DNA from: a virus
Lineage: Duplodnaviria; Caudoviricetes
Direction: 5' to 3' (one strand)
Length of the DNA: 52,600 nucleotides
Virus record (IMG/VR): IMGVR_UViG_3300017783_000031
Coordinates: 1 to 52,600 of that record
The notes under the pieces were generated by a model. That model saw nothing but the letters and a program-made list of their open reading frames with translations, ran no database searches and was not told the origin of the DNA. Both the position numbers and the translations under genes were made by a program. Below, in pieces: positions 13,051 through 46,493 of the stretch; within the stretch, counting starts at the first letter, position 1, and each line of letters begins with the position of its first letter.

Positions 13051-14298
13051 ATGACAGAAGAAACAACTCAAGTTGAAGAAACAGTACAAGAAGCTGTTGA
13101 ACAACAAACAGAAGAAAAACAACCTGTTGCTAAAGAACCAGAAAGGCCTAGCAACGTATCCGTTGATGACGACGGAATGATTAAAGTAGACCTTAGAAAC
13201 TTAAACCAAAACGACGATGCCATTCAAGAGCAAAGCACAGATGAGGTTCCTGTACGCGACGAATCCGAAACTAGCGGAGAAGTACAAGAACAAAACACCG
13301 AAAAAACAAATGAAGAGCCTTCCGGAGAAAGCAACCCCATTGACAATGAAAATGAGGTGCTCGAACTCATACAAGATGAAGAACCGGTAAAAGAAAAAGC
13401 AACATTAGCGGATAAAATAAAAGATATTCCTAATAAGCTTAAAGAGGAGACAGAAGACGTAAATAATAATCAAGAAGTCAATGAGTTACCAGAAAACGTA
13501 AATAAGCTTGTTGACTTTATGAAAGAAACTGGAGGAACTCTTGAAGATTATGTTAATCTAAATAAAGATTACTCCGATATGGATGATATGGATGTTTTAA
13601 GAGAACACTATAGGCAGTCCAAACCTCACTTAAACGAAGAGGAAATAAGTTTTTTAATTGAAGACTCTTTTTCATATGATGAAGAAACAGATGATGACAG
13701 AGATGTTCGAAGAAAAAAACTTGCATTAAAAGAATCTATCGCAGAAGCTAAATCAACTCTAACTAATTTAAAGAGTAAATATTACGATGATCTTAAGTTA
13801 AGTTCAAAGTTAACTCCACAACAGAAAGAAGCGGTTCAGTTTTATGATGATTATAGACAAACGCAGGAAACATCAAAACAACAGCGGTCTATATTTGAAC
13901 AAAAAACAAATGACTTGTTTGCCAACAATTTCAAAGGTTTTGAATATAAAGTTGGAGAAAACAAATATAGATTTAAAGTAAAAGATGTAAATAATATACA
14001 GGAAAGCCAGTCTGATATTAATTCATTAGTTAGCAGATTTGTTGACGAAAAAAACAATATGAAAGATGCAGTGGGCTATCATAAGGCATTGTTTACAGCT
14101 ATGAACGCTGATGCTATTGCAAATCATTTTTATGAGCAGGGTAAGGCTGATGCTGTTAAAAACAGCATGGCTAAGTCTAAAAACATAGATATGAACCCTA
14201 GAGGGACACATGAAAATGTTACAACTCAAGGAGGCATGCAAGTAAAAGCAGTTAGTGGAGATGATTTTAGTCGTTTAAAAATTAAAATGAAACAATAA
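13051..14298 (+). CDS. Acidic capsid scaffolding/head assembly protein
   Basis: Very E/D-rich disordered N-half, helical C-half; located between portal and MCP. Confidence 0.7.
   Translation: MTEETTQVEETVQEAVEQQTEEKQPVAKEPERPSNVSVDDDGMIKVDLRNLNQNDDAIQEQSTDEVPVRDESETSGEVQEQNTEKTNEEPSGESNPIDNENEVLELIQDEEPVKEKATLADKIKDIPNKLKEETEDVNNNQEVNELPENVNKLVDFMKETGGTLEDYVNLNKDYSDMDDMDVLREHYRQSKPHLNEEEISFLIEDSFSYDEETDDDRDVRRKKLALKESIAEAKSTLTNLKSKYYDDLKLSSKLTPQQKEAVQFYDDYRQTQETSKQQRSIFEQKTNDLFANNFKGFEYKVGENKYRFKVKDVNNIQESQSDINSLVSRFVDEKNNMKDAVGYHKALFTAMNADAIANHFYEQGKADAVKNSMAKSKNIDMNPRGTHENVTTQGGMQVKAVSGDDFSRLKIKMKQ
13217..13390 (+). CDS. Putative overprinted small basic protein in the +1 frame of the scaffold gene (57 aa, MPFKSKAQMRFLYATNPKLAEKY...)
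   Basis: ATG 13217 to TAA 13388-13390; N-terminus resembles the MPFKSxAQ small phage protein motif; A at -3 and -6; locally raised GC. Confidence 0.55.
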   Translation: MPFKSKAQMRFLYATNPKLAEKYKNKTPKKQMKSLPEKATPLTMKMRCSNSYKMKNR

Positions 14299-17381: not shown

Positions 17382-18275
17382 ATGGCTTTAGCACAATATA
17401 CACCGAAAGAATACTACAATAGTAAGGATCAAGGATATTATCAATTTGTTACAATAGATGATATAATAAGCAATTTTTTGGTTTCGTATGTTGGCGATGA
17501 TAAAATTATAAAGTCAGCAAAAAGAAATGAAATAGCATACCATGCTCAAAGAACACTGCAAGAGTTAAGTTATGATACTATAGACAATGTAAAATCTATA
17601 GAAGTTGAAATACCTCCTTCTATGTCGCTACCATTACCCCATGATTTTGTAAACTATGTTAGAATAACATGTTTAGATGAGGCCGGTATTGAAAGACCCT
17701 TGAAACCAAGCCAAACAACAACTGCTCCAACACCATATTTGCAAGACGACGATTATAATTATTTATATGACGACAAAGGCAATGTTTTAATAGGTAAAGA
17801 ATCAGAAGCAGCAAAAAGATTTAAAGGGCAAAATAATAATTCTTATAGTACAACAGACGCATCAGACATAACTTATTTAGAAGAGGGCTATGGCTATAAT
17901 GTTGATTTTGGAAAAAGATATGGAATTGATCCTGCTACTGCTAATAAAAATGACACATTTGTAATTGATCAGCCTAGAGGTGTTATATCATTTAGTAGTG
18001 GTGTTAAAAATAAAATAATTATTATTAAATATGTTTCCGACGGGTTGAATGTTGATGAAGACATGAAAATACATAAGTTTGCTGAGGAAGCAATGTATAA
18101 ATCAATTGCATTAAATATAATGTCGGCTAAATCAAATATACCCGAGTATCAAATAAATAGATTAAAAAAAGAAAGGAAAGCAGCTATGCGTTCGGCTAAA
18201 CTTAGATTAGCTAATATAAATATAGAAGATCTTACTCAAGTAATGAGAGGCAAATCAAAACAAATTAAACACTAA
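17382..18275 (+). CDS. Second tail ring/adaptor structural protein
   Basis: LPHDFVNYVRI, YVSDGL, IHKFAEEAMY motifs; located between the ring protein and the stabilization protein. Confidence 0.6.
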   Translation: MALAQYTPKEYYNSKDQGYYQFVTIDDIISNFLVSYVGDDKIIKSAKRNEIAYHAQRTLQELSYDTIDNVKSIEVEIPPSMSLPLPHDFVNYVRITCLDEAGIERPLKPSQTTTAPTPYLQDDDYNYLYDDKGNVLIGKESEAAKRFKGQNNNSYSTTDASDITYLEEGYGYNVDFGKRYGIDPATANKNDTFVIDQPRGVISFSSGVKNKIIIIKYVSDGLNVDEDMKIHKFAEEAMYKSIALNIMSAKSNIPEYQINRLKKERKAAMRSAKLRLANINIEDLTQVMRGKSKQIKH

Positions 18276-21200
18276 TGGCGGAACTAAAGCACACCTTTAC
18301 GTCGGGTAGAATGAATAAAGACCTAGATGATAGACTTGTACCTAATGGCGAGTATACTGATGCTTTAAATATACAGATTTCTTCTTCTGAAGGTGACGAT
18401 GTTGGCTCAATAGAAAACACATTAGGTAATGAACTTTTGTCTGATTTGCAGTTACAAAACGCAAAAACACTAGGCAGTATATCTGACACTAAAAAAGATA
18501 AAATATACTGGATAGTTACTTCTGATTCTATAGACGCTATTTATGAGTTTGATGAAAAAACTAAAGAAATAAAACCTGTATTGTTAGATGAAAAAACAAA
18601 TCAAACAATAACAATAAATGATGTTTCTATATATTCAAATGTTGAAGGTGAATTATCCTTTTCATATAATGAATTAAAATTTAATAGTTTATTAGGTAAA
18701 AATCTAGAAAAAGCCACGCCTGATTCTCCACAAAAATATGGGTTAACACATAGCAATGTAGACATAGAGTGTTCAGAAATTGATTTAAAAATAACAGCGC
18801 CAAAAAACACAAGTGTTTTAAATAACAATAACGAAAGTATTGAATTTAAAAATATACCTTATAACGGAAAACATTTTGGAAATTTAGATGTAAACTTTAC
18901 TTACACTGATTCTGGTTTTTTAAATTTTTCTAAAAACAACTTAATAACAGGCATAAACATAATTGATGGACTTTTATTTTGGACAGATAATATAAATCAA
19001 CCTAGAAGAATAAATATATCTGAATTTAAAAACTACAAGCATATTGCTAATCAAACGCAAATATCATACAAGTATAAGGATTCAAATGGCACTGTTAATA
19101 TTGATTATAGACCAATAAATGAAGATGATATATCTGTAATTAAAAAAGCTCCTCTAAAAGCTCCTAATATAACTTTATTTGACACTGATATAACAGGTAA
19201 TACAACTATTACAGCACAAGTTAATTTTGTAGATAAAATAGCTGGGGATGAAATTGATATAACTGATTTTGGAGGTATACCTAATTGGGTAGAAGGCCAA
19301 TCTATTTTGTTTGTTACGGAAGATGCCGATTTATCTTTAGAATGTAGGGTGCAAAGCATCGATGCTACAAATAAAAGTATTAAAGTTATTATTTCTAATA
19401 TAGATTCAGATGAACCTGTTACTAAGAGTCATTTATTTACAGCTAATTTAGTAGAAGAAGATCCTATATATGAATTGGCTTTTGTAAGATTTGCGTATAG
19501 ATGGAAATATAAAAACGGAGAATATTCTGTTTTTTCCCCTTTTACTCAACCAGCTTTTTATCCAAACTTTAAAGTAAATAGAAACGGTTTTAAATACGAT
19601 GGTAAAGAGGCTTTTAACTATGGTATGGTAAACCAAGTTCGTAAGGTTTTATTAGAAGATTTTGACTTAGGATCAGATGAGGTAGAAGATATTGAGATAA
19701 TATTTAAAGAAACTAGAAATAATAATATATATATATTAACTACTAAAAAAAGATTAAATTTTGAAAACTCTTTTACAATAAGAAAAGAGCAAATTAAATC
19801 TTTAGTAGCTAACGATCAACTACTCAGACAATGGGATAATGTACCAAGAAAAGCAAAAGCACAAGAGGTTACTGCTAATAGAGTTATTTATGGTAATTAT
19901 ATACAAAATTATGATGTATTTGAAGACCCTGATTTTGATGTAAAACTAAATACCGCAAACGCAGAAAGAAGAATAAGCGCTAAGTCAAATCGCAATTACC
20001 AATTGGGTGTTGTTTATTCAGATGAATACAATAGACAAACACCTGTTTTTTCTAACGACACAGGTGTTATAACTATACCTAAATCTAAATCGTCCGAACA
20101 AAATAGAATATCTGCGTCTATAAAAACTCCACCACCGCCCTGGGCGACACACTATAGGTATTTTATAAAAGATACATCTGGTGAGTTCTATAATTTAGCA
20201 GCGGACCGGTTCTACAATGACGTTGAAAACGGTTTTATGTATATAAGTTTTCCTTCTTCAGAAAGAAACAAAGTTACAGAAGAACATTATTTGTTGTTAA
20301 AAAAGAATCATGGAGACAATAATCCTGTTGATTCTACTGAAAACAGATATAAAATAATAGATATATCTGCTGAGCCACCTGAATTTATAACTGCTAGAAA
20401 AAGACTTGTAAGATCATTAGGCAATATAGTATTTACTGATGACTATAAAGGCTCTGGCGGTGGAACTACAATAACAAATAAAGATGATGCTAGTAACGCC
20501 GCACCATTAAACGAAAGAGCAATTATACAGTTAAAACAGGCTAATGGTAGTCCTGATGGTGTAGAGTTAGAAGAAACTAAAGAAATAAAGCCTGGTAGAT
20601 ATATAAATTTTGAATATTTAGGTAAAGAATCAAAACCTTACAAAATAAAAAGACTATCACAGGATCCAGCCGGATCTAATGAAATAAAAATAGATTTTGA
20701 AGAGCCTTTTGGAGAAGATGTTGAAATAATATATAATAAAACAAGTGGTAATCTAGGAGATCAAAACACAAACCTAGGTGTTAGCATGAACATCTTAGAA
20801 GAGTTTATTGCTGCTGGTGATAAAGAATTTGATGGAAGATTTTTTGTTAAACTTAAATCTAATTCTACTTTAATAAACTCTATAATAACACAAGATATTG
20901 GGGGAGTAAGCTATCTAGTTAAATTTGATCTTAATCTAATAGGTATATATTCATCAAAAGATTCTAATGGTACAGGTAGATCTGGATCCAATAAGTGGAG
21001 AAATGTAAACAGAGGAAAAGATAGCGCAGCGACTAATCCAAGAAATGATTTTGTTGTTCATAAAGGTGGGACCGCAATACCTGGTAGTACTTATGAAACA
21101 GGTAAAAGACATGACGCTGGATCAATAGAGTATAATATTTCAGTTGAAGCTTCTACAAGACGTAGAAATTCTGAAGTTGAAAAATTACAAAAATTAGCTA

Positions 21201-24200
21201 AAGTTGGTAATTTTGTAAGATTTGTAAATCCTGATGGTACTCCACATCACGATAAAATATATGAAATAGGTCAAACTTTAAGAACCACTCATGAAACAAA
21301 GCATGGAGGTAATTATTTTACAAAATTTAGAACCTATGTAGAATTACATTTTAGATTCGTAGACGAAGACGGAAATTTTCAACCATTATTAAAAGATATA
21401 GTAACAAGAGGTGATGATACTTGGATGAATGAACCAAGGATGGAGATACTAGAAGAGAGGGTAGAAGAAAATCTAGTAGTAAAAGAGCCGGCTATATTTG
21501 AGACGGAGCCTTTAGAAAGTAAAACAGAATTAAATATATATTTTGAGGCTTCTGATATACTTCCAATAAGTATACACGGTGATAATTACAACTTAAACTG
21601 GTATAATTGTATTTCCTTTGGTAATGGTGTTGAGTCTAATAGAATAAGAGATGATTATAATGCTGTGTTTATAGACAATGGTGTTAAAGCTTCAACTGTT
21701 TTAGATGAACCATTTAAAGAAGAACACAAATTCAACTCGTTAATATGGTCGGGTATAGTAAACTCAAGATCAGGCGTTAATAGATCTAATGAGTTTAATA
21801 TGGCAAATCCTATAACAAAGGATTTTTTACCATCATATGGGAGCATACAAAAACTACACGGATGGGATGATTCTATGGTTATTATTTGTGAAGATAAAAC
21901 ATTAAGGGTTTTAGCAAATAAATCAGCTCTTTACAATGCTAATGGGTCTTCTAATTTAATATCTGATAGTAGAGTTATAGGAGATCCTATAGAATACAAC
22001 GGGGAATATGGCATTGGAACATATCCAGAGTCTTTTGCTTCGCATGGATTTAGATGCTATTTTGCTGATAAAACTAGAGGTGTTATTATTAGACTATCAA
22101 AAGATGGGTTAACTCCAATATCAAAAAACTACATGAATAGTTTTTTCCGTCAAAGATTATTTGCCGCAAATACTTTTTACGGAAGCTATGATGCAAGAAA
22201 AAAATTATATAATATTTCTTTTGACGGATTAGATACGGTTTGTTTTTCTGAAGACGTAAACGGCTGGGTAACAAGAGCATCATTTATACCTGAAAATGCT
22301 TTATATTTAAACAACATTTATTATACGTATAGAAATGGTGATTTATGGCAGCATGACAGCCCTAATGTAGTTAGAAATAACTATTATGGAGCACAATATA
22401 AATCTCATGTAGAATTTATAATAAATGATAACCCCTCTGTTATAAAAAAATACAAAACTTTAGGTTATGAGGGTACTGCCGGATGGATTGCTAAAAATAT
22501 AGTTACAGATCAAGTTACTGGAACAGAAGCAACTTTTACGCCTAAAGAAAATAAATTTTTTACTAATATAACACAAGAGGCTAAAAAAACAAATAATCTT
22601 GATCATAAAAACTTTTCAACACAAGGTATAGGTAGATCAATTAGAAAGCCAAACGAAGTAGATTATGATGATACTGTAGGGGCACAAGATCTTGATGATT
22701 TTAATGTAAAAATAAATGACGGACAGTCTTGGAGTAGTGATATAAAACAATCAATAGAAATAAAACAGGATGGCAGCATAGATGATATTCAAATAACATT
22801 ATTTCCTACAAGTGGTTATTTGATAGAAAAAGCACAATTTACAACACCAAATAGTTTAATAACTGTTGAAAATTCTACACCTAATGTTATTGTTACTGTA
22901 AAGGGAGATTATCTTGAATCTTTAAATCCGTCTGATAACGATACAAAATATATAACACTAGCAGGAAAATCTGTTTTACAACCAATAAAAGTAAGTGGTA
23001 GTTATAGTATACAAGGGCCTTTTGTAACAGATGATATAGGTAATGGAAATTATCAAATAACAGAAGATCCTAATACTGTTCAGCAGATAAATAAAAGAAT
23101 AATAAAACCTTTAAATGGTTATTATATTAATGTTGAAGATATAACTATAGATAATTCTTTAATTTCTATAAGCAAGAATAAACTTGGCAATGGAAATATA
23201 GAAGTTATAGAAACTATAACTATACCAAGAGCAAAATCTACAAACATAAACTACACTATAAGCGCAGTAGCTCATGAAATAATAATACCTGATAAAGTAA
23301 TATTTACTAAAAATTTAAACACTAGCGATGTTAACAACGATGGTGAAACAAGAACGTTAATATTAAATGGAGAAAAAAATTCAGAATATGAACTTGTTTT
23401 TTTAGAAGGCTCTAGTGTTATAAAATCGGTAAGTGGTAAAATTCCATCAAATACTTTAAAATCAAATGTAGATTTAATTTTTCCAGCTGGGGACACGGCA
23501 CAGACGTATACTGTTCAATTAAAGACAGTATCTGGTACTGTTTTTTCTAATACTTTTGGAGATGAAACTATTAATATTTATAGAAAAGTTAGGTATGTTA
23601 ATGATATAACATTTACTGTAGATGTTGGAAGTAATATTACAACAACTCAATCTTTAACAAATAGTCCTGTTATTGTTTCTGGTTATGTAGATGATATTGC
23701 TGATATTGATTTTACGTTTTCATATACATTAAATGGCACAGGTTACAGCCTTAGTAAAGTTCCTGTCATGGATGATGTAGTTTTTAGTACTAACAATACT
23801 GGAACAAAAATAATATTTAATACGTTTACTCTAACCACAGCAACAAATGATACTTTATTAATAAAAGGTAAATTAACATCTACTAGCTTTATTGATTCAG
23901 AATTTTTTGAATTAAACTTAAATAATCTATTAGATAAAAATGTAACAATAACTTTTGCTTATTCTAACACTATAGCGGGAGGTTCGGCTACATCAAATTA
24001 CACTGTAGCCGGATATAATGGTGCAAGTATACCTTATACAATAACAACAAAAGCAAATAAGCCACATACAAATATGATTGGCCGTTATTTTGAGTTGACC
24101 TCGGCTTCAGGTTATAAGAATAAAAAAACATTTACTAATATAATACCTTTTAAAATATACGACTCATCCAACAATGATGTTACAGCAACCTTTGCTTTTA

Positions 24201-26029
24201 ACGAAAAAGTTTCTTTTGGTCCGCGCCCATCTGTTAATAATAGTAAAATTGTTGTTGGTTTTAAAAATAAGACTTTTGTAGCTCCTTCAACAAATCAAAC
24301 ATATACAATTAGACCTTTAGAAGAAATTTTTGAAGCTAATACCGGCGTTGAAATAAGAGCTCTTATAGCTTTCGCAACACAATTAAAATCATCAGGTTTT
24401 ACTAAAATAAATGGATATTCAAGCGTTGCAGCTTACAATATGACAATTAATACTGTTTCTACAGGTCAAAATTTTGAAAGCGGATCAATAAACCAAAGAT
24501 CGTTAGATAATATAGACAGAGCATTAAGCGGAGAAGGAGTCACACAAAGATGGTTAGGTTCAAATGGCAATGAACAGTTTTTTAATGGTAATGGATTACA
24601 AGGTATAACTAATTCTTTTAGTGAAACAAGCTCTGGTAGGTACTGGATTACAGATGGATCAGCAGGAAATAAATTGATGCAGCATGTTATGAAAATGCCT
24701 GATTCATTGTTTTATTGGTGGGATCCAGATAATACTAGTACGTCAAAATATAATATAACAAACTTAGGTAGTTATTTTACAAAAGCAACTGCTGGTACTT
24801 ATACCGATATATTTGGAGATTCAAAACAAGTAACCAATACTTTTGAGGTTAGTGCAGACGGAAAAACACTCACAGTTAACATGCTAATCAATTTTAATAA
24901 CACTCCTGTTGGTAATACATATTATATACCTGAACTTTTAGTAACTGCTGTTAATGACCACCCTGGTTTTTTCAATAAATATCTTGCAAAAGTAGGTAAC
25001 TACGATCATTATAAAGACCCTTGTACTTTGGTTCATGATGATAATATTGATTTTGTTGAAGTTATTTCTAAAGATTTACCATTAAAAAAAGGTAGTCTTG
25101 TGTATTTAAGAACAAATGATGGAGATTTATTATATCTTGGCAATAGATTCCCTGCATATATAAAAGATAACCCAAATCTTTTATATAGTGATGAAAATAA
25201 ATTTCTTAATGCAGGTGCTAAATCTGTACCTAAAGGACATTATAATTTCATTCAAGGTGAAGCGCCTATAACTCTTGAAGATACAAATTGCTCAATAGTT
25301 AAATTTAATGATTTCCCTACTGTTAAAAAAACAGGTGAACTTGGATATATTAAATCTGTTACTTCTAATAATGGTGGTATTTATCAATATAAAGAAATTT
25401 ATTTAAAAAATACCGCTTATGCAAATAAAGAAATAACGATAAAAGGAACCTATTTTGACATGAGATATGCGAATTATAGTAATATTCCTAATAATAATGT
25501 TAGTAATAATGCTTTTAATAAAAATCTTATGATTGTAACATCCCCTTCATATCCAAAAGGAATCTATGCTCAAAAAGCAATTGAGCATGTTGAAACTTTT
25601 GGTTGGAAAATAACAGATCCTGCATTAAATACTTGGGAAGCTAAAGTCCAACTTGATTCAAAAGGTGAAGGCACATTGCAAATTGGTGTTCAAATATATT
25701 CAAATGTTAACGTAAATGGTTTAATAGTATATAGTGAACAAATAACAGGGCCTAATGGTGAAACATTAGCCTCTCATGGTGATGCTTATTATGATTTAAC
25801 AAGAATGAGAATAGGTTCATCAGCTAAAAAACCAGAACCAAAATACGAAATAGATTATTCTGTTAAGCAATTTGTATTTAAAGGCAATTATAAACCATAT
25901 ACTGATCATCCTGAAAATGCTGATTTTCCTTCTCTTTACAATATAGACAGTAATGGTACTATAGTTGAATCAGATCAATGGGTTAATTATTATACAGGAC
26001 AAATGTTTTTACCTACTAAAAATCAATAA
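18275..26029 (+). CDS. Tail stabilization/muzzle (nozzle) protein with a long C-terminal extension (2584 aa)
   Basis: N-terminal GRMNKDLDDRLVPNGEYTDALN, WTDNINQPRRINI, FAYRWKYKNGEYS, GNGVESNRIRDDYN, YGIGTYPESFA motifs of P22 gp10-like/crAss muzzle proteins. Confidence 0.75.
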   Translation: MAELKHTFTSGRMNKDLDDRLVPNGEYTDALNIQISSSEGDDVGSIENTLGNELLSDLQLQNAKTLGSISDTKKDKIYWIVTSDSIDAIYEFDEKTKEIKPVLLDEKTNQTITINDVSIYSNVEGELSFSYNELKFNSLLGKNLEKATPDSPQKYGLTHSNVDIECSEIDLKITAPKNTSVLNNNNESIEFKNIPYNGKHFGNLDVNFTYTDSGFLNFSKNNLITGINIIDGLLFWTDNINQPRRINISEFKNYKHIANQTQISYKYKDSNGTVNIDYRPINEDDISVIKKAPLKAPNITLFDTDITGNTTITAQVNFVDKIAGDEIDITDFGGIPNWVEGQSILFVTEDADLSLECRVQSIDATNKSIKVIISNIDSDEPVTKSHLFTANLVEEDPIYELAFVRFAYRWKYKNGEYSVFSPFTQPAFYPNFKVNRNGFKYDGKEAFNYGMVNQVRKVLLEDFDLGSDEVEDIEIIFKETRNNNIYILTTKKRLNFENSFTIRKEQIKSLVANDQLLRQWDNVPRKAKAQEVTANRVIYGNYIQNYDVFEDPDFDVKLNTANAERRISAKSNRNYQLGVVYSDEYNRQTPVFSNDTGVITIPKSKSSEQNRISASIKTPPPPWATHYRYFIKDTSGEFYNLAADRFYNDVENGFMYISFPSSERNKVTEEHYLLLKKNHGDNNPVDSTENRYKIIDISAEPPEFITARKRLVRSLGNIVFTDDYKGSGGGTTITNKDDASNAAPLNERAIIQLKQANGSPDGVELEETKEIKPGRYINFEYLGKESKPYKIKRLSQDPAGSNEIKIDFEEPFGEDVEIIYNKTSGNLGDQNTNLGVSMNILEEFIAAGDKEFDGRFFVKLKSNSTLINSIITQDIGGVSYLVKFDLNLIGIYSSKDSNGTGRSGSNKWRNVNRGKDSAATNPRNDFVVHKGGTAIPGSTYETGKRHDAGSIEYNISVEASTRRRNSEVEKLQKLAKVGNFVRFVNPDGTPHHDKIYEIGQTLRTTHETKHGGNYFTKFRTYVELHFRFVDEDGNFQPLLKDIVTRGDDTWMNEPRMEILEERVEENLVVKEPAIFETEPLESKTELNIYFEASDILPISIHGDNYNLNWYNCISFGNGVESNRIRDDYNAVFIDNGVKASTVLDEPFKEEHKFNSLIWSGIVNSRSGVNRSNEFNMANPITKDFLPSYGSIQKLHGWDDSMVIICEDKTLRVLANKSALYNANGSSNLISDSRVIGDPIEYNGEYGIGTYPESFASHGFRCYFADKTRGVIIRLSKDGLTPISKNYMNSFFRQRLFAANTFYGSYDARKKLYNISFDGLDTVCFSEDVNGWVTRASFIPENALYLNNIYYTYRNGDLWQHDSPNVVRNNYYGAQYKSHVEFIINDNPSVIKKYKTLGYEGTAGWIAKNIVTDQVTGTEATFTPKENKFFTNITQEAKKTNNLDHKNFSTQGIGRSIRKPNEVDYDDTVGAQDLDDFNVKINDGQSWSSDIKQSIEIKQDGSIDDIQITLFPTSGYLIEKAQFTTPNSLITVENSTPNVIVTVKGDYLESLNPSDNDTKYITLAGKSVLQPIKVSGSYSIQGPFVTDDIGNGNYQITEDPNTVQQINKRIIKPLNGYYINVEDITIDNSLISISKNKLGNGNIEVIETITIPRAKSTNINYTISAVAHEIIIPDKVIFTKNLNTSDVNNDGETRTLILNGEKNSEYELVFLEGSSVIKSVSGKIPSNTLKSNVDLIFPAGDTAQTYTVQLKTVSGTVFSNTFGDETINIYRKVRYVNDITFTVDVGSNITTTQSLTNSPVIVSGYVDDIADIDFTFSYTLNGTGYSLSKVPVMDDVVFSTNNTGTKIIFNTFTLTTATNDTLLIKGKLTSTSFIDSEFFELNLNNLLDKNVTITFAYSNTIAGGSATSNYTVAGYNGASIPYTITTKANKPHTNMIGRYFELTSASGYKNKKTFTNIIPFKIYDSSNNDVTATFAFNEKVSFGPRPSVNNSKIVVGFKNKTFVAPSTNQTYTIRPLEEIFEANTGVEIRALIAFATQLKSSGFTKINGYSSVAAYNMTINTVSTGQNFESGSINQRSLDNIDRALSGEGVTQRWLGSNGNEQFFNGNGLQGITNSFSETSSGRYWITDGSAGNKLMQHVMKMPDSLFYWWDPDNTSTSKYNITNLGSYFTKATAGTYTDIFGDSKQVTNTFEVSADGKTLTVNMLINFNNTPVGNTYYIPELLVTAVNDHPGFFNKYLAKVGNYDHYKDPCTLVHDDNIDFVEVISKDLPLKKGSLVYLRTNDGDLLYLGNRFPAYIKDNPNLLYSDENKFLNAGAKSVPKGHYNFIQGEAPITLEDTNCSIVKFNDFPTVKKTGELGYIKSVTSNNGGIYQYKEIYLKNTAYANKEITIKGTYFDMRYANYSNIPNNNVSNNAFNKNLMIVTSPSYPKGIYAQKAIEHVETFGWKITDPALNTWEAKVQLDSKGEGTLQIGVQIYSNVNVNGLIVYSEQITGPNGETLASHGDAYYDLTRMRIGSSAKKPEPKYEIDYSVKQFVFKGNYKPYTDHPENADFPSLYNIDSNGTIVESDQWVNYYTGQMFLPTKNQ

Positions 26030-26031
26030 AA

Positions 26032-26355
26032 ATGGCTAACTTAACTGTAAATTTTGGTGAAGCATTAAATACTTCTTTACAAAAAGGAGATATTATATAT
26101 TTTTTAAAAAATGATAATTTAACAGAATTAGGTGAGTGTGTTTCCGTTGCTTCTGATAGATTAAGTTTTATAGTAGATGTACCACCGCAGGCACAAAGAC
26201 CTGTTATAGGTGATTACTTTATGTTTGCAAAAAACAATGTAATAAATAGTAGTGGACTTATTGGCTATCAAGCCACTATAAAAATGGAAAATGATAGCAC
26301 AGATTTTTGTGAATTATACGCTGTAAACAGCGAAACAATGTTTAGTAGTAATTAA
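26032..26355 (+). CDS. Hypothetical tail-associated protein
   Basis: 107-aa ORF, LNTSLQKGDIIY..SSGLIGY..ELYAV; located in the tail operon. Confidence 0.6.
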   Translation: MANLTVNFGEALNTSLQKGDIIYFLKNDNLTELGECVSVASDRLSFIVDVPPQAQRPVIGDYFMFAKNNVINSSGLIGYQATIKMENDSTDFCELYAVNSETMFSSN

Positions 26356-28534: not shown

Positions 28535-31500
28535 ATGTTTGAATTAGACGGGAATGAATATACATTAGATCAAGTTCAAGCCGCGGCTTATAAGTCGGGT
28601 ATGATGGTTGATGATTATGTTCAAAAATATAAATTCAAAGAATTGGGAAAGACAACTCCCACATCACCGGGTGCGGATGTGGAGGAAAATGCAGCACCCG
28701 AATTGACCGTTACGGAATCTCCATCGGTAGATATTTCTTTGGAGTTACCTCAAACAGGAACAGTTGATTCAACATTAGTTACTCCTCCACGAAAAAAAAC
28801 ACCGTCTGAATTAAGGATAGATGTTACAAGACAAGCGATGGCAAGAGCTAATCCTATGGCTACCCTTATGCCTGATTTTATGATACCTATATTAGCTGAT
28901 TGGACCGCTATGACAGCAGAATTAGGGGCAGGGGTTGTAGATACTGCTGAAATATTATATGAATTGGGATTAGCTGGAATAAGTGATAAAACTTTTGATA
29001 GAATATCTCGTGAACAAAGAATAGATATGTCAGAAGTTTACGAGGGCGTGGAAGCACTTAGAAATATTAGAGAAAAAAAATATGATGAACAAGGCAATGA
29101 GTTAGATGCTATTGGTTTGTGGCAATCAGGTCGCAAAGGTGAGTCAGCACAACAATTTATTAGCGAAGCGATTGGTTCGTTACCTGCTACTGTTTTAACT
29201 TATATGATGCCAGGATATGGCTCAGCTGTAATAGGGCTTGGTACATTTGGTTCTGAATTTGAAAGGAATTTAAAAGAACGACCTGAAGAAACAGCAGGAT
29301 TGATGTTGGGTAATGCTGCTTTAAAAGGAGGATCAGAAGCTTTATTTGAATGGTTAGGGGGATATACCTTTAAAACATTAACTAGAGCAGCTACAAGAGG
29401 GGTAACGGAAAAAGTTATTAAAGATATGACACGTACCGGGGTTCCTTATGCTCTTCGTAAAATACTAGGCATTGGTGCACAAGCTGGGGTTGAAGCTCTT
29501 ACAGAATCAGCAACAGGGGTTACACAATTAGCGGCTGATGAAATGTTTTTTGATGACGAAATAGAAGCTGCGCAATATTGGAGAACAGCTATTCATAGCG
29601 GGGTAGTTGGTGGATTAATGGGTGGTGGTATTACAGCTGGAACTATAGGAACGCAAGTAGCGTTGACTGGCGATAGAAAAAAAATAGCGATGTCAATAAT
29701 TGCACCAAAAAAGTGGAGGCAAGAGCAATTACAAATTGGTATCGAGATTGATAGAGCAACTAAGGATTATGAAAATGCTCCTGATCGGAAAAAAGCATAT
29801 TTTAAAAATAAAATAGAAGTATTAGAACAACGCCAACAAGGGAGGGCTGATAGATTATCTAAAGTTTGGGATGGTTTAACTAGAGCAGAAAAAATAGAAT
29901 ATGCGAGATTAATAGATGAAACTAATTCTCAATTAGATATTATAGGCAATGTTAAATATACTAACCAAGCCCAAAAAGAAGCGCAAGTACTTTTAGATAG
30001 CGCTTATACAGAAATGGGAGCTATATTAGGTAAAGATAATATAGACATAGAACAAGAGCAAGCGTTGTCAAGAATAATTAAAAGTGGAGTTAGTATAGCA
30101 GAAGCGGTTGGAGTTGCAAAAAAAGTTTTAAAAGATATAAATATAGAAAATGTTTCTAATGAAGTATTTCAAGAAGTATCAAAAGCAATAACTGGTAAAA
30201 AAAGTAAATCAGATGCTCTATTTTTTGATGGTAATAATATATATATAAATAGAGATATTTCAGCAGCTACAGAACAAACAAATGTATTGGGACACGAACT
30301 ATTACATTATGTTATGGCTAAAAATTTTAATGTTAGCGATGAATCTTTAGGCCCATTAGTAAATAGCTTTAAAGATTATTTAAAACAAACTCAGCCGAAG
30401 ATATTAGAAAGAATAGAACAAAGACTTAAAAAAGCTTATGAGGGTGAAGCACCTTTGGAAGAATATTTAAATATTTTTTCAGATATTATAGCTAGAGAAA
30501 AAATAATAGTTGATGAAAGCATTACTGATAAAATAAAAAATTCAGCAACTCGTCTTTTAAGTAGTTTCGGATTTGGTTCGGTTAAGTTAGAAACAGGAAA
30601 AGATGTTTTTAATTTTTTAAGAAACTATACTAAAAATGTTAATAATCTAAAGTTTAAGCAACTTGGCGTTGACATTAAGTCTAGTAAAATAGGTAATGAA
30701 ATTAAAGAAGACGTTGAAAGATTTTCTAAGTCTGGAGCTTCAGATAAAGTACAAGAAATATATGAAGCCCAAGGCGCTGCAAATGCTTTTGATATAATTG
30801 CAGAGTTTAAACCTATTGTAGATAAAATTGTAAATAAATATAGAAACGTACCTGGTTTTGAATATCAATTATTAAAAGATGAAATAGAAACAGGGAAACG
30901 CGGTATACTTGACATGATTATGGCATACACGCCTGAAAAAGCCAAGGGTGCACCATTAGCCGCTTATATAAATAAATTTTTACCAAAAAGAGCAATTGAA
31001 GCAGCTAATCGTATATTAGACACGGAATTTACATTAGATGTTACCGAGGCTAAGGGTGTTACAGATACCACTACTGAAGAAAGTATAGATATAACTGAAG
31101 AAGTTAATATAGCCGACGAAATAAAAAGTTTAAGAAAAGAAATTGGTCTACCAGAAGAGCTTATTACAAAAGTTAAAGATGCGGTAATAAAAACATTTGG
31201 TACAAAATTACCAAACCCTCAAGACCCTAAGTTTAGAGCGGAGTTACAAAAAAGGTTTAGAACAGAGCTTAAAAAACCAATGGCAAAATTTGTTGGTAGA
31301 CAAGAAGCATACGAATCTTTTTTACGTAATAATTTTAAATCTATATATGATAAACTACCTCAGTCAATATTAAATAAAAGATTTAAAGATTTTATTGAAC
31401 CTGTTGTTGATGAAAATGGAAAACAATTACGTGAAAAAACGGCCGAGGGTAATAAAATATTTACTAAGAAAAAAATTACGCCTGCTGAATTTATAAAATA

Positions 31501-34500
31501 CTTTTTAGGTTCTGATGTTGGAAGATCAACACAAGGAACTAGAAAAACTGCAATTGTTGAAGCTATAGCAGAAGAAATAGCATTTGATGCTACAATGGAA
31601 GTATTAAATAGTAACGATGTAAAATCTAAATACGAACAAATTGCTGAAATAACGGGTGATATATTGCCTGATAATTATTTAGCTCAAATAGCAAAACAAA
31701 TAGATAGAAATGAAGACTTTAGGTTTTCAAAAAGTATTCTTAATGATTCGGGATTAAGCAATCAAGAATTAAGCTCTATTTTATTTAAAGGATTTATTTC
31801 TGCTGCTGGTAAGCTTGACCCTAAAATAATTGAAGTATTATTAGATGATGCATGGACAAAAAGTTTTCCAATAGTATTAGAGAAATATATATTGCCTGGC
31901 TATGCTGAAGCAATAAAAAACAAATCTATTGAGGAACAAAGCGATATAAGTAAATATTTAATTAATATTATTTCAAGACCATTAAGAACAATCTCTAGAC
32001 AAACGGAGGAATTAAATTATAATACAAATTATAGATTATTTAAAAAATTACAAGAAATTGCAGGAGATAAAATTTTTGGGCCCAATGAACCTATTCGCCT
32101 TGACGAAAAAATTATAGAATATAAAGAAGGACCTAATAAAGGTAAATTTAAAGAAAAAAGAACTTATATAAGAGATGTTGATGGCGTAGCATTAGGATCT
32201 TCTACGTACAATACTTCGGTGCAGAGTTTTCATAAAGATTTAATAAATGATAAGCTTTCAAGAGAGGAAGTTGATGGAGTATTTAGCGAAAATAGGAATA
32301 GGTTAAAAGAATTAATATTTGGCCTTGGGACTGAAAATAAAGGTTTAGCTATATCTCTCATTAAACTTACTCAAAAAGATCAAAGAGGATTATTGAGGTC
32401 TTCTGGTAACATAGGGGGGATTGTACAAAATTATTCAGGTGAAACAGTATTTGAGCATCGACCGCCGGTACAATATTTATTTGAAAAAATAGTTAATTAT
32501 ATACAACGACCAACAGATGCAAAAAAAGAAAAATTAAATACGTTATTAGACACTGCTCAAATAAACGTAGTGCCAAAAGATTTTGCAGATATAGTTGATC
32601 AAGATTATAAAACTACTATTCCTAAAGATGGTAAAATAAGTTATGAAAAAGCATTAGATCAAACTAATTATAATTTTGATGGAATGTTTAGATTTTCTAA
32701 ATCATTAGATAAGGAGTTTAATCAGCTGTTGCAAGCAACTACTGGTGTTGAATGGACAAAAGAATTTTCACCTGTTAAAGCTAAAATGCTTGGCAGAGGA
32801 AAAGGTAAAAAGTTTTTTATACCATATTCAGCTGATGATTTTGTAGGTTTATTATACGCTACATTAGGTAAAGGTAAAGTAGGAGATCGGCAAATGGAAT
32901 GGTATAATGAAAATTTAATTAGACCTTTTTCCCGCGCTATTCAACAATTTGAAAATGCTAAGCAAAATTCATTGCGTAAATGGATGGAACTCAAAAAAGA
33001 AGCTATTAAAGATGTGCCTGGTAAACTTGATAAAAAAAATAGTTCAGGATTTACAAATCAAGATTCTGCTAGAATATATATATGGAAATCACAAGGAATG
33101 GAAATACCAGGTCTTGAAAACGATCCACAAACAATAAGTGAAAATCTTGAAATTGTAAAAAACAACCCTAAATTAAAAGAATTTGCTGATAGATTAAAAG
33201 CTTTGAATTCAGAAGGCTATCCAGAGCCAAGCGCTGATTGGTCTGCTGGGGATATTACAACAGACCTTGTATCATATGTTAATGATGTAAAACGATCTGA
33301 ATATTTAACACAATGGAAAGAAAATGTAAAAGAAATATTTAATGACCGTAATAAAAACAAGCTAAGAGCGTTATATGGAGATAGGTATGTTGAAGCTTTA
33401 GACGATATATTAGCTCGCATGAGTACGGGCCGTAATAGAAGAAGCGCAGCAAGTAAAGCTGAAAAAGCTTTTATGGATTGGACTAATAATTCTATTGGTA
33501 CGATCATGTTCTTTAATGCTAGATCAGCAGTACTGCAAACATTATCAGCAGTTAACTTTATAAACTTTAGCGATAACAATCCAATTAATGCAGGATTAGC
33601 TTTAGCTAATTTCCCGCAATATGCAAAAGATTTTACAACATTATTTAATTCTGACTTTTTAAAACAAAGACGTTCTGGCTTACAAACAGACGTAAACGCA
33701 GATGAAATTGCGAATGCAGCTGCTACATCACAAAACAAAGCAAAAGCAATGTTGAGTTATATTCTTAAAATAGGATTTGCCCCAACACAAATAGCTGACT
33801 CATTTGCAATTGCTTCAGGCGGTGCCACATTTTATCGCAATAGAATAAAAAAATATTTAAAAGAAGGATTAGAACAATCTGAAGCTGAAGCAAAAGCATT
33901 TACAGACTTTCAAGAAATAGCGGAAGAAACGCAACAATCCGCTAGGCCTGATAGGATATCATCGCAGCAAGCAGGCTCATTAGGGCGCCTTATATTAGCT
34001 TTTGGTAATACACCTATGCAATACGCTCGATTAACTAAAAAAGCTGCTTTAGATTTAATTAATGGGCGTGGAGATTGGAAGACAAATATTAGTAAGATTG
34101 CATATTATAGTGTAATACAAAATATTATATTCTCCGCTTTACAACAAGGTCTTTTTGCTTTATTATTTGATGATGAAGATGATGATGATGTTAAGTCTAG
34201 AATATTTAGAATAGGTAATAGTAGTGTTGACACATTACTTAGAGGTACAGGGGTTTATGGTGCCGCGGCTGCTACTGTTAAGAATATGATATTAGAAATT
34301 ATAGAACAATCTCAAAAGTCTAGACCAGATTATACACAAGTTGCAATAGAATCTACAGCAATTTCACCACCAATCAATTCAAAATTAAGAAAATTAATAT
34401 CTGCCGGTAAAACTTTTACTTATAAGCAAACAAAAGAAAAAGTGTTTACAAAAGGCTTTAGCTTAGAAAACCCTGCATTTATGGCGGCTGGACAAGTTAT

Positions 34501-34735
34501 ATCTGCTGGTACTAATTTTCCCGCTGACAGAGTTGTTAAAAAATTAGATCATTTGAGTATAGCAATGCAACCCGAAACAGAATTATGGCAATCAATTGCA
34601 TTATCTCTTGGGTGGAGCAAATGGGATCTTAATATGATTGAAAAGCAAACTTCTAATAAAACCTTAACAACAAAGCAGTTGCAAAACTTAATGAAAAGAA
34701 ATAATAATCTTAAACAATTAATGAAAAGAAAATGA
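28535..34735 (+). CDS. Giant internal virion (ejection) polyvalent protein: hydrophobic N-region, zincin metallopeptidase (HELLH), sigma70 region-2-like domain, uncharacterised domain, conserved helical C-terminal domain (2066 aa)
   Basis: HELLH at aa 587-591 with downstream EE at aa 642-643; RFSKS at aa 729, 1063 and 1386; IIAEFKPIVDKIVNKYR..GILDMIMAYTPEK..LAAYINKFL sigma-like segment. Confidence 0.75.
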   Translation: MFELDGNEYTLDQVQAAAYKSGMMVDDYVQKYKFKELGKTTPTSPGADVEENAAPELTVTESPSVDISLELPQTGTVDSTLVTPPRKKTPSELRIDVTRQAMARANPMATLMPDFMIPILADWTAMTAELGAGVVDTAEILYELGLAGISDKTFDRISREQRIDMSEVYEGVEALRNIREKKYDEQGNELDAIGLWQSGRKGESAQQFISEAIGSLPATVLTYMMPGYGSAVIGLGTFGSEFERNLKERPEETAGLMLGNAALKGGSEALFEWLGGYTFKTLTRAATRGVTEKVIKDMTRTGVPYALRKILGIGAQAGVEALTESATGVTQLAADEMFFDDEIEAAQYWRTAIHSGVVGGLMGGGITAGTIGTQVALTGDRKKIAMSIIAPKKWRQEQLQIGIEIDRATKDYENAPDRKKAYFKNKIEVLEQRQQGRADRLSKVWDGLTRAEKIEYARLIDETNSQLDIIGNVKYTNQAQKEAQVLLDSAYTEMGAILGKDNIDIEQEQALSRIIKSGVSIAEAVGVAKKVLKDINIENVSNEVFQEVSKAITGKKSKSDALFFDGNNIYINRDISAATEQTNVLGHELLHYVMAKNFNVSDESLGPLVNSFKDYLKQTQPKILERIEQRLKKAYEGEAPLEEYLNIFSDIIAREKIIVDESITDKIKNSATRLLSSFGFGSVKLETGKDVFNFLRNYTKNVNNLKFKQLGVDIKSSKIGNEIKEDVERFSKSGASDKVQEIYEAQGAANAFDIIAEFKPIVDKIVNKYRNVPGFEYQLLKDEIETGKRGILDMIMAYTPEKAKGAPLAAYINKFLPKRAIEAANRILDTEFTLDVTEAKGVTDTTTEESIDITEEVNIADEIKSLRKEIGLPEELITKVKDAVIKTFGTKLPNPQDPKFRAELQKRFRTELKKPMAKFVGRQEAYESFLRNNFKSIYDKLPQSILNKRFKDFIEPVVDENGKQLREKTAEGNKIFTKKKITPAEFIKYFLGSDVGRSTQGTRKTAIVEAIAEEIAFDATMEVLNSNDVKSKYEQIAEITGDILPDNYLAQIAKQIDRNEDFRFSKSILNDSGLSNQELSSILFKGFISAAGKLDPKIIEVLLDDAWTKSFPIVLEKYILPGYAEAIKNKSIEEQSDISKYLINIISRPLRTISRQTEELNYNTNYRLFKKLQEIAGDKIFGPNEPIRLDEKIIEYKEGPNKGKFKEKRTYIRDVDGVALGSSTYNTSVQSFHKDLINDKLSREEVDGVFSENRNRLKELIFGLGTENKGLAISLIKLTQKDQRGLLRSSGNIGGIVQNYSGETVFEHRPPVQYLFEKIVNYIQRPTDAKKEKLNTLLDTAQINVVPKDFADIVDQDYKTTIPKDGKISYEKALDQTNYNFDGMFRFSKSLDKEFNQLLQATTGVEWTKEFSPVKAKMLGRGKGKKFFIPYSADDFVGLLYATLGKGKVGDRQMEWYNENLIRPFSRAIQQFENAKQNSLRKWMELKKEAIKDVPGKLDKKNSSGFTNQDSARIYIWKSQGMEIPGLENDPQTISENLEIVKNNPKLKEFADRLKALNSEGYPEPSADWSAGDITTDLVSYVNDVKRSEYLTQWKENVKEIFNDRNKNKLRALYGDRYVEALDDILARMSTGRNRRSAASKAEKAFMDWTNNSIGTIMFFNARSAVLQTLSAVNFINFSDNNPINAGLALANFPQYAKDFTTLFNSDFLKQRRSGLQTDVNADEIANAAATSQNKAKAMLSYILKIGFAPTQIADSFAIASGGATFYRNRIKKYLKEGLEQSEAEAKAFTDFQEIAEETQQSARPDRISSQQAGSLGRLILAFGNTPMQYARLTKKAALDLINGRGDWKTNISKIAYYSVIQNIIFSALQQGLFALLFDDEDDDDVKSRIFRIGNSSVDTLLRGTGVYGAAAATVKNMILEIIEQSQKSRPDYTQVAIESTAISPPINSKLRKLISAGKTFTYKQTKEKVFTKGFSLENPAFMAAGQVISAGTNFPADRVVKKLDHLSIAMQPETELWQSIALSLGWSKWDLNMIEKQTSNKTLTTKQLQNLMKRNNNLKQLMKRK
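28645..28700 (+). promoter_or_regulatory. Predicted programmed -1 ribosomal frameshift signal (G GGA AAG plus H-type pseudoknot)
   Basis: In-phase slippery heptamer 28645-28651; stem 1 ctcc(c)acatc/gatgtggag, stem 2 cgggtgc/gcacccg. Confidence 0.65.
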
Positions 34736-45749: not shown

Positions 45750-46493
45750 TTAAAGAAAATCAATTACTTGAGCTGGGTTTACACTCTCGATTAACTTATT
45801 TATTGCATCCCTTTTTATTTGAGATATTCTTACATATGAAGCTGTGCCTTTTATCTGTAATTTATCAGCAATTGCTTTAGCTGACATTTTATCACAGTCT
45901 AAACCATAACTCATACGCAATACATCATATTCTTTTATACTTAAATGTGATTGCATTATAGATAATAAATACTTATTCATTATATCTATATTGTAATCTT
46001 TTGAATTATCTGGTATTTCAAAAAATGTATTATTATCTTTATCTGTTTCATCTAGCGAATAAAATATACTATTAAAAAACATTTCAACTGTTTTTTGTTC
46101 CGCCTCAGAATTTTTTCGCATATCATTTAACTTATGCTCAGGAATACGTATATTACCCCTGTTTATATCAATAGCTCTGCGTATAGCACCTTTAATTCTT
46201 TTACTTAAAAAACTATTAAGTGTGCGTTGGGGTTCAGTTGAATCAGTAATTTGATTCCAATCTATTTTATCAACCGCCGCTATTAATCCTATTGCTCCTT
46301 CTTGTATTAAATCATTTATAGTCATAACGCCTGACGCTTGTTGAGATGTAGAAAATTTTCTTGCTATTGTTTCAACCAAACCCATGTGAGATATAATTAA
46401 ATCTTGTCTACTATCTCCGGTATCGGGTATTTCGCTATAACTTGCAAGGTCATGTTTAAACCTAACGTAGTTTTGTATGTTATACTTCTTCAT
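45750..46493 (-). CDS. Phage sigma70-family RNA polymerase sigma factor
   Basis: Region 2 LVETIARKF..DLIQEGAIGLIAAVDKID, IRIPEH, region 4 LSIKEYDVLRMSYGL..VRISQIKRDAINKL. Confidence 0.85.
   Translation of the reverse strand: MKKYNIQNYVRFKHDLASYSEIPDTGDSRQDLIISHMGLVETIARKFSTSQQASGVMTINDLIQEGAIGLIAAVDKIDWNQITDSTEPQRTLNSFLSKRIKGAIRRAIDINRGNIRIPEHKLNDMRKNSEAEQKTVEMFFNSIFYSLDETDKDNNTFFEIPDNSKDYNIDIMNKYLLSIMQSHLSIKEYDVLRMSYGLDCDKMSAKAIADKLQIKGTASYVRISQIKRDAINKLIESVNPAQVIDFL

Follow-up and report, generated by a model that had tools for sequence, protein, structure and literature searches.

Self-processing of phage polyvalent proteins by a zincin domain, a metallopeptidase (MPTase), was proposed in 2017 by Iyer, Burroughs, Anand, de Souza and Aravind in J Bacteriol (PMC5512222), and section 8 of that article lists three possibilities for the moment of cutting, namely before packaging (P1 DdrB), in the head, or after ejection. 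Here we describe a 2066-amino-acid protein, P0001, encoded by an open reading frame (ORF) on the plus strand (28535..34735, stop codon included) of an uncultured marine phage, the IMG/VR virus record IMGVR_UViG_3300017783_000031; the whole stretch of 52,600 bases that was analysed is referred to as the window, and its estimated completeness is 83%. P0001 carries a zincin-like domain and three exact copies of the pentapeptide RFSKS, and the reading we favour, with moderate confidence, is that of a polyvalent protein that processes itself, being cut at [KR]-F-S-K-S by its own gluzincin, and that is probably packed in the virion. The kind of protein is already known, since a polyvalent protein with a zincin hub has been proposed to process itself; what is added here is a natural protease-less control and a possible sigma-like cargo. 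The 2017 proposal of polyvalent self-cutting had no defined sites, and P0001 offers three exact candidate sites together with a predicted catalytic residue, E588.

In several respects P0001 resembles the polyvalent proteins and their MPTase domains as PMC5512222 describes them: it is a giant multi-module protein encoded in a late or virion block, its modules are swappable, and its HExxH...E zincin is predicted to possess a sheet of three strands and, between the active-site helices, a variable insert. It differs from the polyvalent set in matching none of its Pfam or PHROG models (LPD, MPTase-PolyVal), and the usual enzyme cargo (ADP-ribosyltransferase, nuclease, methylase, primase) was not detected in it. 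Its joints carry a defined motif that is lost without the zincin, whereas the main text of PMC5512222 gives no joint motif (the words 'linker' and 'sigma' are absent from it, and 'cleavage site' is confined to the reference list). Another point of comparison is offered by RNA-virus polyproteins, for example that of the potyviruses, in which NIa-Pro serves a polyprotein with seven conserved sites (PMC7833154). Like these, P0001 is one translation product with an embedded predicted protease and a short conserved motif per joint; unlike these, it belongs to a DNA phage, its predicted protease is of the zinc rather than the Cys/Ser class, and its cutting is a prediction from sequence. The Peptidase M78 or ImmA-IrrE zincins (PF06114) share with P0001 an HExxH and a downstream Glu, but P0001 scores below the curated cut-off of that family (18.7 vs 22 bits) and only the region of the HExxH helix aligns. 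Enzymes of the M78 and ImmA-IrrE type are specific, each cutting a single partner at a single site. Among the full-text literature matches listed for KFSKS or RFSKS there was no phage paper (those for KFSKS were papers on methionyl-tRNA synthetase), and among the matches listed for polyvalent proteins, cleavage sites and zincins there was no later experimental work.

P0001 is a large multidomain protein of at least five modules, encoded among virion genes. Its N-terminal region (amino acids (aa) 1-519; 28535..30091, on the plus strand like all parts of the protein) is rich in Pro, Thr and Ser near aa 40-95 and then has Gly-rich and helical parts, with zero Pfam families at E<=10 over aa 1-500. 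The zincin-like domain of gluzincin type (aa ~520-712; 30092..30670) is predicted to comprise three strands, an HExxH helix, a two-helix insert and an EE helix; HELLH (aa 587-591; 30293..30307) is its predicted zinc-binding and catalytic motif, and E643 of EEY (aa 642-644; 30458..30466) the likely third zinc ligand. Downstream lie the three junction motifs, RFSKS at aa 729-733 (site 1; 30719..30733), aa 1063-1067 (site 2; 31721..31735) and aa 1386-1390 (site 3; 32690..32704). They open, respectively, the module M1 (aa 729-1062; 30719..31720), whose first ~100 residues are tentatively sigma-70 region 2-like, the variable slot or module M2 (aa 1063-1385; 31721..32689), with a confident predicted alpha/beta fold from about aa 1110, and the conserved C-terminal module or C domain (aa 1386-2066; 32690..34732), which is helical and has one hydrophobic segment by hydropathy (aa 1860-1878).

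An initial annotation of this DNA had taken HELLH, the downstream EEY and the three RFSKS copies, encoded by differing codons, as signs of a self-cleaving polyprotein. All of these positions were reproduced inside the single ORF, the codons differ exactly as had been described, and the pieces delimited by the repeats are indeed 728, 334, 323 and 681 aa long. We also agree that the repeat is kept as protein rather than stemming from a DNA duplication: the flanks of the three copies show a nucleotide identity of 0.36-0.43 in register over 105 nucleotides (nt), and within the motif itself 10-13 of 15 nt are identical among the copies. RFSKS is the sole 5-mer that occurs three times in P0001, and shuffling the protein yields any 5-mer at least three times in 7 of 2000 cases (about 0.4%), so that chance alone is unlikely to be behind the triple occurrence; it is conservation in homologues that decides. 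A search of the 26 remaining ORFs of the window (12,654 aa in total) for the broader pattern [KR][FYLM]S[KR][ST] found no copy, nor did [RK]FSKS turn up in any other of the window's six frames. We considered and rejected a reading of KFSKS as the 'KMSKS' loop of class I aminoacyl-tRNA synthetases, as the motif sits in linkers between unrelated modules.

Relatives of P0001 are plentiful in metagenomes: 2199 homologues were found at E<=0.001 among 8000 scored candidates, aa 501-1683 match 1882 representatives at 50% clustering, and relatives of its C-terminal half turn up on at least 572 IMG/VR stretches, the contigs that bear the family being mostly 30-68 kb long. No match was obtained by tblastn of P0001, or of the C domain alone, against 50,697 deposited phage records, nor by comparing P0001 with PHROGs, and Pfam returned nothing above cut-off for the whole protein or for its five pieces. 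This is a large family without Pfam or PHROG annotation, of more than 2000 members from marine and other sources, and it is known from metagenomes only.

In 255 of these homologues the strict motif [KR][FYLM]S[KR][ST] occurs 254 times, compared with 16.4 +/- 3.9 times in shuffles, at one to five copies per homologue. Its positions read K in 92% and R in 7% of cases, then F (79%), L (11%) or Y (7%), then S, then K (90%) or R (9%), and lastly S (83%) or T (16%), where the 100% of the central S is forced by the search pattern and says nothing on conservation; a hydrophobic residue is often found at position -1 and L or I at +5. In a 50-row alignment (A1), site 2 is kept almost throughout (K/R 46/50, F 49/50, S 49/50, K/R 45/50, S/T 44/50) and site 1 is looser (K/R 28/50, F 17/50, S 24/50, K/R 29/50, S/T 35/50), while the RFSKS of site 3 directly precedes SL[DN]K[EQ]FN, the conserved start of the C domain in homologues. 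The motif forms a five-residue island in otherwise unalignable, low-confidence linkers of proteins that are 35-45% identical. The initial annotation had asked whether R[FY]SK would flank variable domains in homologues, and it does: the motif is kept at the joints and stands on both sides of the variable module. The modules on either side of that slot are widespread, with M1 present in 243 of the 255 homologues, zincin-less ones included, and the first 305 aa of the C-terminal module matched by 247 of the 255; identity in this module is often 70-80% even between proteins that differ elsewhere. Of the IMG/VR loci, 74 are closed at the upstream end (another six are cut off by the contig end), and every one of the 74 has at least 1045 aa in frame ahead of the C domain; in none of them do the modules occur as separate genes split at the motif. 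That the C domain is never a separate gene is as expected if it must be made as part of a polyprotein.

Six homologues (P0148, P0154, P0156, P0161, P0169 and P0224) have two motif copies 27-29 aa apart directly upstream of the C domain. If both were cut, a short spacer peptide would come free.

The evidence that carries our interpretation is the coupling of the motif to the zincin. We compared 272 proteins longer than 1700 aa that bear a zincin (HExxH or an EE..H variant) with 37 long homologues that lack it and serve as a natural control. Over whole proteins, [KRQ][FY]SK was seen 389 times in the zincin-bearing set against 53 expected from shuffles, and 6 times in the zincin-less set against 6 expected. 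The same division appears joint by joint. At site 1, where 202 homologues could be anchored, 116 of the 170 zincin-bearing ones have the motif and none of the 32 zincin-less ones does; at site 2 the figures are 114/128 and 0/33, and the 14 zincin-bearing proteins that miss it read KFSL, KFSN, KFAK and similar. For site 3, scored as [FYLM]S[KR] at most 26 aa upstream of the C domain (random-window background 7.1%), they are 131/200 and 3/37, and most of the 69 zincin-bearing misses read KASKS, KESKS, KSSKS, KFSIS and similar. All three zincin-less exceptions at site 3 can be explained: P0136 and P0152 do possess the zincin module, with HExxH changed to EELFH, and P0242 starts downstream of the position at which the zincin lies in its closest relative and looks N-terminally truncated. 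A fourth apparent case under a broader motif, P0081, is a chance match 20 aa upstream, which makes one chance match among 35 zincin-less homologues at this joint. In short, relatives without the protease are also without the sites.

A FastTree phylogeny of the C domain was computed from 237 proteins with at least 900 aa upstream (235 of them with both traits scored), leaving out the motif columns; on it, the presence of the zincin switches 29 times. In 26 independent pairs, with figures averaged over 200 random pairings, the joint motif follows the zincin in 18.6, goes the opposite way in 1.0 and is unchanged in 6.4 (median p 4e-5); with the broader motif the corresponding values are 20.0, 0 and 6.0 (median p 2e-6). 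Clustering of the 200 aa upstream of site 3 likewise gave three largest clusters that each mix zincin-bearing and zincin-less proteins. The motif is present in 77 of 93 zincin-bearing and 1 of 24 zincin-less members of the cluster of 117, in 17 of 23 and 0 of 8 in the cluster of 31, and in 62 of 66 and 3 of 4 in the cluster of 70, where the three are the exceptions P0136, P0152 and P0242. A single example illustrates the difference: P0100, which is zincin-less, and P0130 share a module with the pattern 'FADDA..NV.AVKD...VQQAK', and P0100 reads KKPAKSL where P0130 reads VRFSKSV, with [KR][FYLMA]S[KR] absent anywhere in P0100. A single-linkage clustering of inter-motif segments was set aside as uninformative, M1 and M2 having merged in it. 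Taken at the level of sequence comparison, a functional tie between the motif and the zincin-like domain appears well supported.

The three sites also coincide, to differing degrees, with joints of the protein. Among 471 high-scoring segment pairs (HSPs) obtained by BLASTP of P0001 against 252 homologues, 96 end at most 15 aa from site 2, 140 start at most 15 aa from site 3 and 34 start at most 15 aa from site 1, compared with 7.1 per site expected from a uniform spread of HSP ends or starts; the same pile-up of breakpoints is seen in the HMMER and tblastn tables. Breakpoints at the sites point to an architecture of a conserved N-terminal region with the zincin, a conserved M1, a variable slot and a conserved C domain, the three seams each carrying the motif. 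Two AlphaFold2 models, covering aa 520-1075 (model 1, from alignment A1; mean predicted local distance difference test score (pLDDT) 76.9) and aa 1050-2066 (model 2, from alignment A2; mean pLDDT 64.1), are in line with this for two of the sites. Site 2 is disordered in both (pLDDT <50 in the tail of model 1 and in residues 1-60 of model 2), and site 3 occupies residues 337-341 of model 2, of which 338-340 have pLDDT <50 between blocks of 84 and 81. Site 1 (residues 210-214 of model 1) falls between helices 200-212 and 216-238. The match between motifs and domain boundaries suggested by the initial annotation thus stands for sites 2 and 3, by breakpoints and low-pLDDT linkers, and is weaker for site 1.

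As to the modules themselves, M1 is predicted to be helical with an internal disordered stretch (aa 835-863), and M2 to adopt an alpha/beta fold (pLDDT 70-91 over residues 61-336 of model 2), for which there was no Pfam match and no usable ESM Atlas match. Modelling of the C domain is confident over its first ~250 residues, and the remainder is helical at low confidence. A Foldseek search of the PDB with both models gave 0 matches at E<=0.001, and nothing significant came from profile searches of alignments A1 and A2 against the PDB. A phage ejectosome protein (8vb2_A) ranked second in Foldseek with E 0.48 and probability 0.03, and we do not take it as evidence. Against BFVD, model 2 had 38 matches at E<=0.001. 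Four of these are homologues at 39-44% identity, and the next ones are long alignments to chunks of polyvalent proteins at about 12% identity and TM 0.2-0.26 (E 2e-9 to 1e-3), with target names such as PolyVal ADP-ribosyltransferase, ART-PolyVal-like, MuF C-terminal and Large polyvalent protein-associated domain. On the strength of this modelled fold, P0001 may be placed loosely among the phage polyvalent proteins.

The zincin-like domain is recognizable by its predicted fold and its invariant residues. Strands 17-21, 42-45 and 49-53 of model 1 precede the HExxH helix (65-78), with pLDDT about 78-91, and a predicted two-helix insert separates it from the EE helix (122-135). In alignment A1, H587, E588 and H591 are conserved in 50/50 rows, E643 in 48/50, F648 in 49/50 and D650 in 45/50, and divergent homologues whose zincin lies beyond the reach of jackhmmer still show an I-x-I-N strand, HExxH and, after 45-70 residues, EE-x-x-T-x-F-S-D. 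The hallmarks of a gluzincin are present: HExxH on a predicted helix, a Glu on a later predicted helix as the likely third ligand and a predicted three-stranded sheet before the active-site helix. The predicted fold agrees with the zincin core as described in section 8 of PMC5512222, and the notion, carried by the initial annotation, that zincins may process polyvalent proteins is already in print in that article. The best Pfam match is Peptidase_M78 (PF06114) at aa 565-597, with E 0.0016 and 18.7 bits over profile positions 26-59 of 123.

Two lineages depart from this conservation. In P0136 and P0152, and at loci L047 and L082, the first His of HExxH is replaced (EELFH) and the K-F-S-K-S joints are retained. 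In such EELFH zincins the metal site may be of a variant kind, or else the protease may be inactive and would still need the motif.

Put together, we envisage that P0001 is made as one 2066-aa chain of an N-terminal region, a gluzincin-like protease, M1, the variable M2 and a conserved helical C-terminal module, and that the embedded gluzincin would recognise [KR]-[FY]-S-K-[ST] in flexible joints and cut there. The expected products would be an N-terminal piece with the zincin, then M1, M2 and the C-terminal module, of about 728, 334, 323 and 681 aa, and these might act separately during or after DNA delivery. Thermolysin-type zincins usually prefer a hydrophobic P1' residue. Because many zincins share this preference, the scissile bond would probably lie before the aromatic residue, which is a guess by analogy. 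Packing of P0001 in the virion is probable given the position of its gene and its resemblance to polyvalent proteins, and the peptide bond at the motifs is likely to be cut. The earlier interpretation of a self-cleaving polyprotein would to this extent be partly supported.

This leads us to the observations that weigh against such a reading. No protease family was found above threshold, with only Peptidase_M78 approaching it at 14.7-18.7 bits against a cut-off of 22, and there were zero protease matches in the PDB by profile or by fold. Site 1 is poorly conserved (its F is kept in the 17 of 50 rows given above) and sits at a predicted helix-helix junction with pLDDT about 68-70, several distant relatives (e.g., L060, L069 and L078) have nothing motif-like before the C domain, and [KRQ][FY]SK is absent altogether from 69 of the 272 zincin-bearing long proteins. 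The zincin and the motif may also move as one recombining upstream block, in which case the tree pairs are not fully independent, because recombination breakpoints fall just downstream of the motif, and the zincin-less proteins represent few lineages in their N-terminal and M1 parts. Lastly, section 8 of PMC5512222 describes MPTase-bearing proteins (N4 virion RNA polymerase, ArdC, TraC1) that are delivered uncut.

These observations bear on several alternative explanations. One is that the motif is bound by the zincin-like domain, or cooperates with it, and is not cut, acting as a docking or pseudo-substrate element that folds the chain back for packaging or keeps the enzyme inactive. Binding would account for the co-variation of motif and zincin as well as cutting does, it would suit the two lineages that keep the motif with EELFH, in which the first zinc-binding His is replaced, and uncut delivery of some MPTase-bearing proteins has been described (PMC5512222, section 8). 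We nevertheless find it improbable, as the invariance or near-invariance of H-E-x-x-H and the downstream Glu in 50 aligned sequences points to a retained catalytic function, and a motif repeated three to five times, each time where unrelated modules join, is what polyprotein sites look like. The motif could on the other hand be no more than a conserved linker feature of the zincin-bearing lineage, one that recombines in a single block with the zincin and is inherited with it, the two being functionally unrelated. The zincin-less proteins are indeed alike in N-terminal and M1 sequence at sites 1 and 2, so that few independent losses are proven, and the breakpoints at the start of the C domain physically link the motif to the upstream block. 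Such hitch-hiking is hard to reconcile with three upstream module families that each hold members with both zincin and motif and members with neither, with a five-residue island kept in unalignable linkers across proteins only 35-45% identical, and with the recurrence of the motif at up to five joints before unrelated modules, and we give it little credence.

Cutting at the motifs by another enzyme, either a phage head-maturation protease or a host protease, has a precedent in that T4-like and phiKZ-like head proteases cut internal head proteins at short motifs. The slot between portal and major capsid genes is the usual home of a scaffold or head protease, and in the window it is taken by a 415-aa ORF (13051-14298, plus strand) that is without a PHROG match and might encode an enzyme of this kind. 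The capsid, portal and remaining virion proteins lack the motif, however, as does every further ORF of the window besides that of P0001, and the motif vanishes where the in-cis zincin is absent. We hold cutting by another enzyme to be highly improbable. Chance repetition of a K/S-rich pentapeptide, for which one could invoke the 7 of 2000 shuffles with some 5-mer three times, has already been refuted by the homologue data, given the conservation at aligned joints in hundreds of homologues, and we assign it practically no weight. Self-cleavage by the embedded gluzincin at the [KR]-F-S-K-S joints remains the explanation we favour.

If P0001 is cut at sites 1 and 2, M1 would be among the released pieces, and its possible nature deserves separate attention. 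Its pattern D-E-I-x-x-G-x-x-G-[IL]-L-D-[LM]-I-x-x-Y-x-P...P-L-A-A-Y-I-N...R-A-I-E aligns by eye with sigma-70 regions 2.2-2.4. A profile of 35 of 37 M1 segments (P0214 and P0232 were removed as mis-anchored) gave nine matches in the PDB, four of them sigma factors in the same register (8b3z_A, E 0.021; 8x6g_H, 0.063; 8vjl_B, 0.25; 5h6x_A, 0.94), two of which also appeared with the full-length profile. In the ESM Atlas, 27 of 30 named matches of M1 were Sigma70_r2 and 3 were viral 'sigma factor' clusters (score 0.93, with a recognition value below the tool's comfort mark). An hhalign comparison of M1 with the phage's own sigma gene reached E 0.023 over 72 columns in the right register, and the top Foldseek probabilities of model 1 were for WhiG (0.41) and sigma-S (0.35), at E 0.7-1. 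On the other side, none of the sigma matches of M1 reaches a significance threshold. Pfam Sigma70_r2 matches 1 of 35 M1 segments (E 0.0057), and this is not the window's own M1; a PF04542 scan of the whole record found only the separate sigma gene (45750-46493) and not M1; and a profile-profile comparison of M1 with 18 homologues of the phage sigma yielded E 0.036 and a probability of 1.4%. For sigma region 4, the helix-turn-helix that recognises the -35 element, Pfam and PDB profile searches of M1 and of the full length returned no model or structure match. Weighing these results, which are weak but agree with one another, we lean towards a sigma region 2-like fold for M1 and regard it as a lead.

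A more speculative extension, which we regard as rather doubtful, is that the virion polyprotein brings a sigma-like, RNA-polymerase-binding M1 into the cell, where self-cleavage at the two flanking R/K-F-S-K-S motifs would free it. Host RNA polymerase could then be captured or redirected at DNA entry, before phage gene expression, with the sigma gene at 45750-46493 serving later stages, and the motif would be a lineage-specific cleavage code that co-evolves with the zincin. If the sigma-like nature of M1 is true, it would constitute a new kind of delivered cargo. We know of no report of sigma-like delivered phage cargo, and among the literature matches listed for packaged or co-injected phage sigma factors nothing was relevant.

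The genome around P0001 is divided into two blocks. The plus strand begins with a 2340-aa ORF for a tail-fibre or virion protein (71-7093, plus strand; phrog_19943, E 2e-192, and phrog_24898, E 7e-95), a third giant gene within a genome of about 60 kb, and continues with the large terminase (TerL), the portal, the 415-aa ORF mentioned above and the major capsid protein, followed by three small virion proteins, a 2584-aa virion protein, ORFs of 107, 233 and 483 aa and finally the 2066-aa ORF of P0001, which closes the block that holds TerL, portal, major capsid protein and the giant virion proteins. From about 36 kb on, genes lie on the minus strand and include ribonucleotide reductase, a primase-helicase and the sigma-70 family gene; both GC skew and AT skew flip sign at about 35.8-36 kb, where the virion block meets the replication block. 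The 107-aa ORF (26032-26355, plus strand), directly after the 2584-aa ORF (18275-26029, plus strand), matches positions 151-237 of the profile phrog_18548, positions 3-165 of which also match aa 1320-1482 of the 2584-aa giant; it is thus a small ORF related to a piece of the neighbouring protein.

By terminase, the relatives of this phage are podophages of Flavobacterium, Cellulophaga, Tenacibaculum and Maribacter (87 matching records), and the closest deposited one is MW202828.1 (63% by TerL). At the same position it encodes a 3859-aa protein (L001:741-12320, minus strand) with two HEFGH, in which there is no repeated 5-mer and no [KR][FYLM]S[KR][ST]. By eye and unaligned, the N-termini (aa 1-30) of P0136 and of this 3859-aa protein share the pattern MNE.A.K...SLF...GY.G...., which, in giants that are otherwise unrelated, might be a packaging or targeting signal.

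The separate sigma-70 family gene of the window (45750-46493, minus strand) encodes 247 aa and matches PF04542 at 24.6 bits, above the cut-off. All 8000 of 8000 scored candidates are homologous to it at E<=0.001, the best 120 of the 8000 are 74-94% identical, and many have PF04542 and/or PF04545; these numbers point to a phage group that is very abundant and has a sigma factor of its own.

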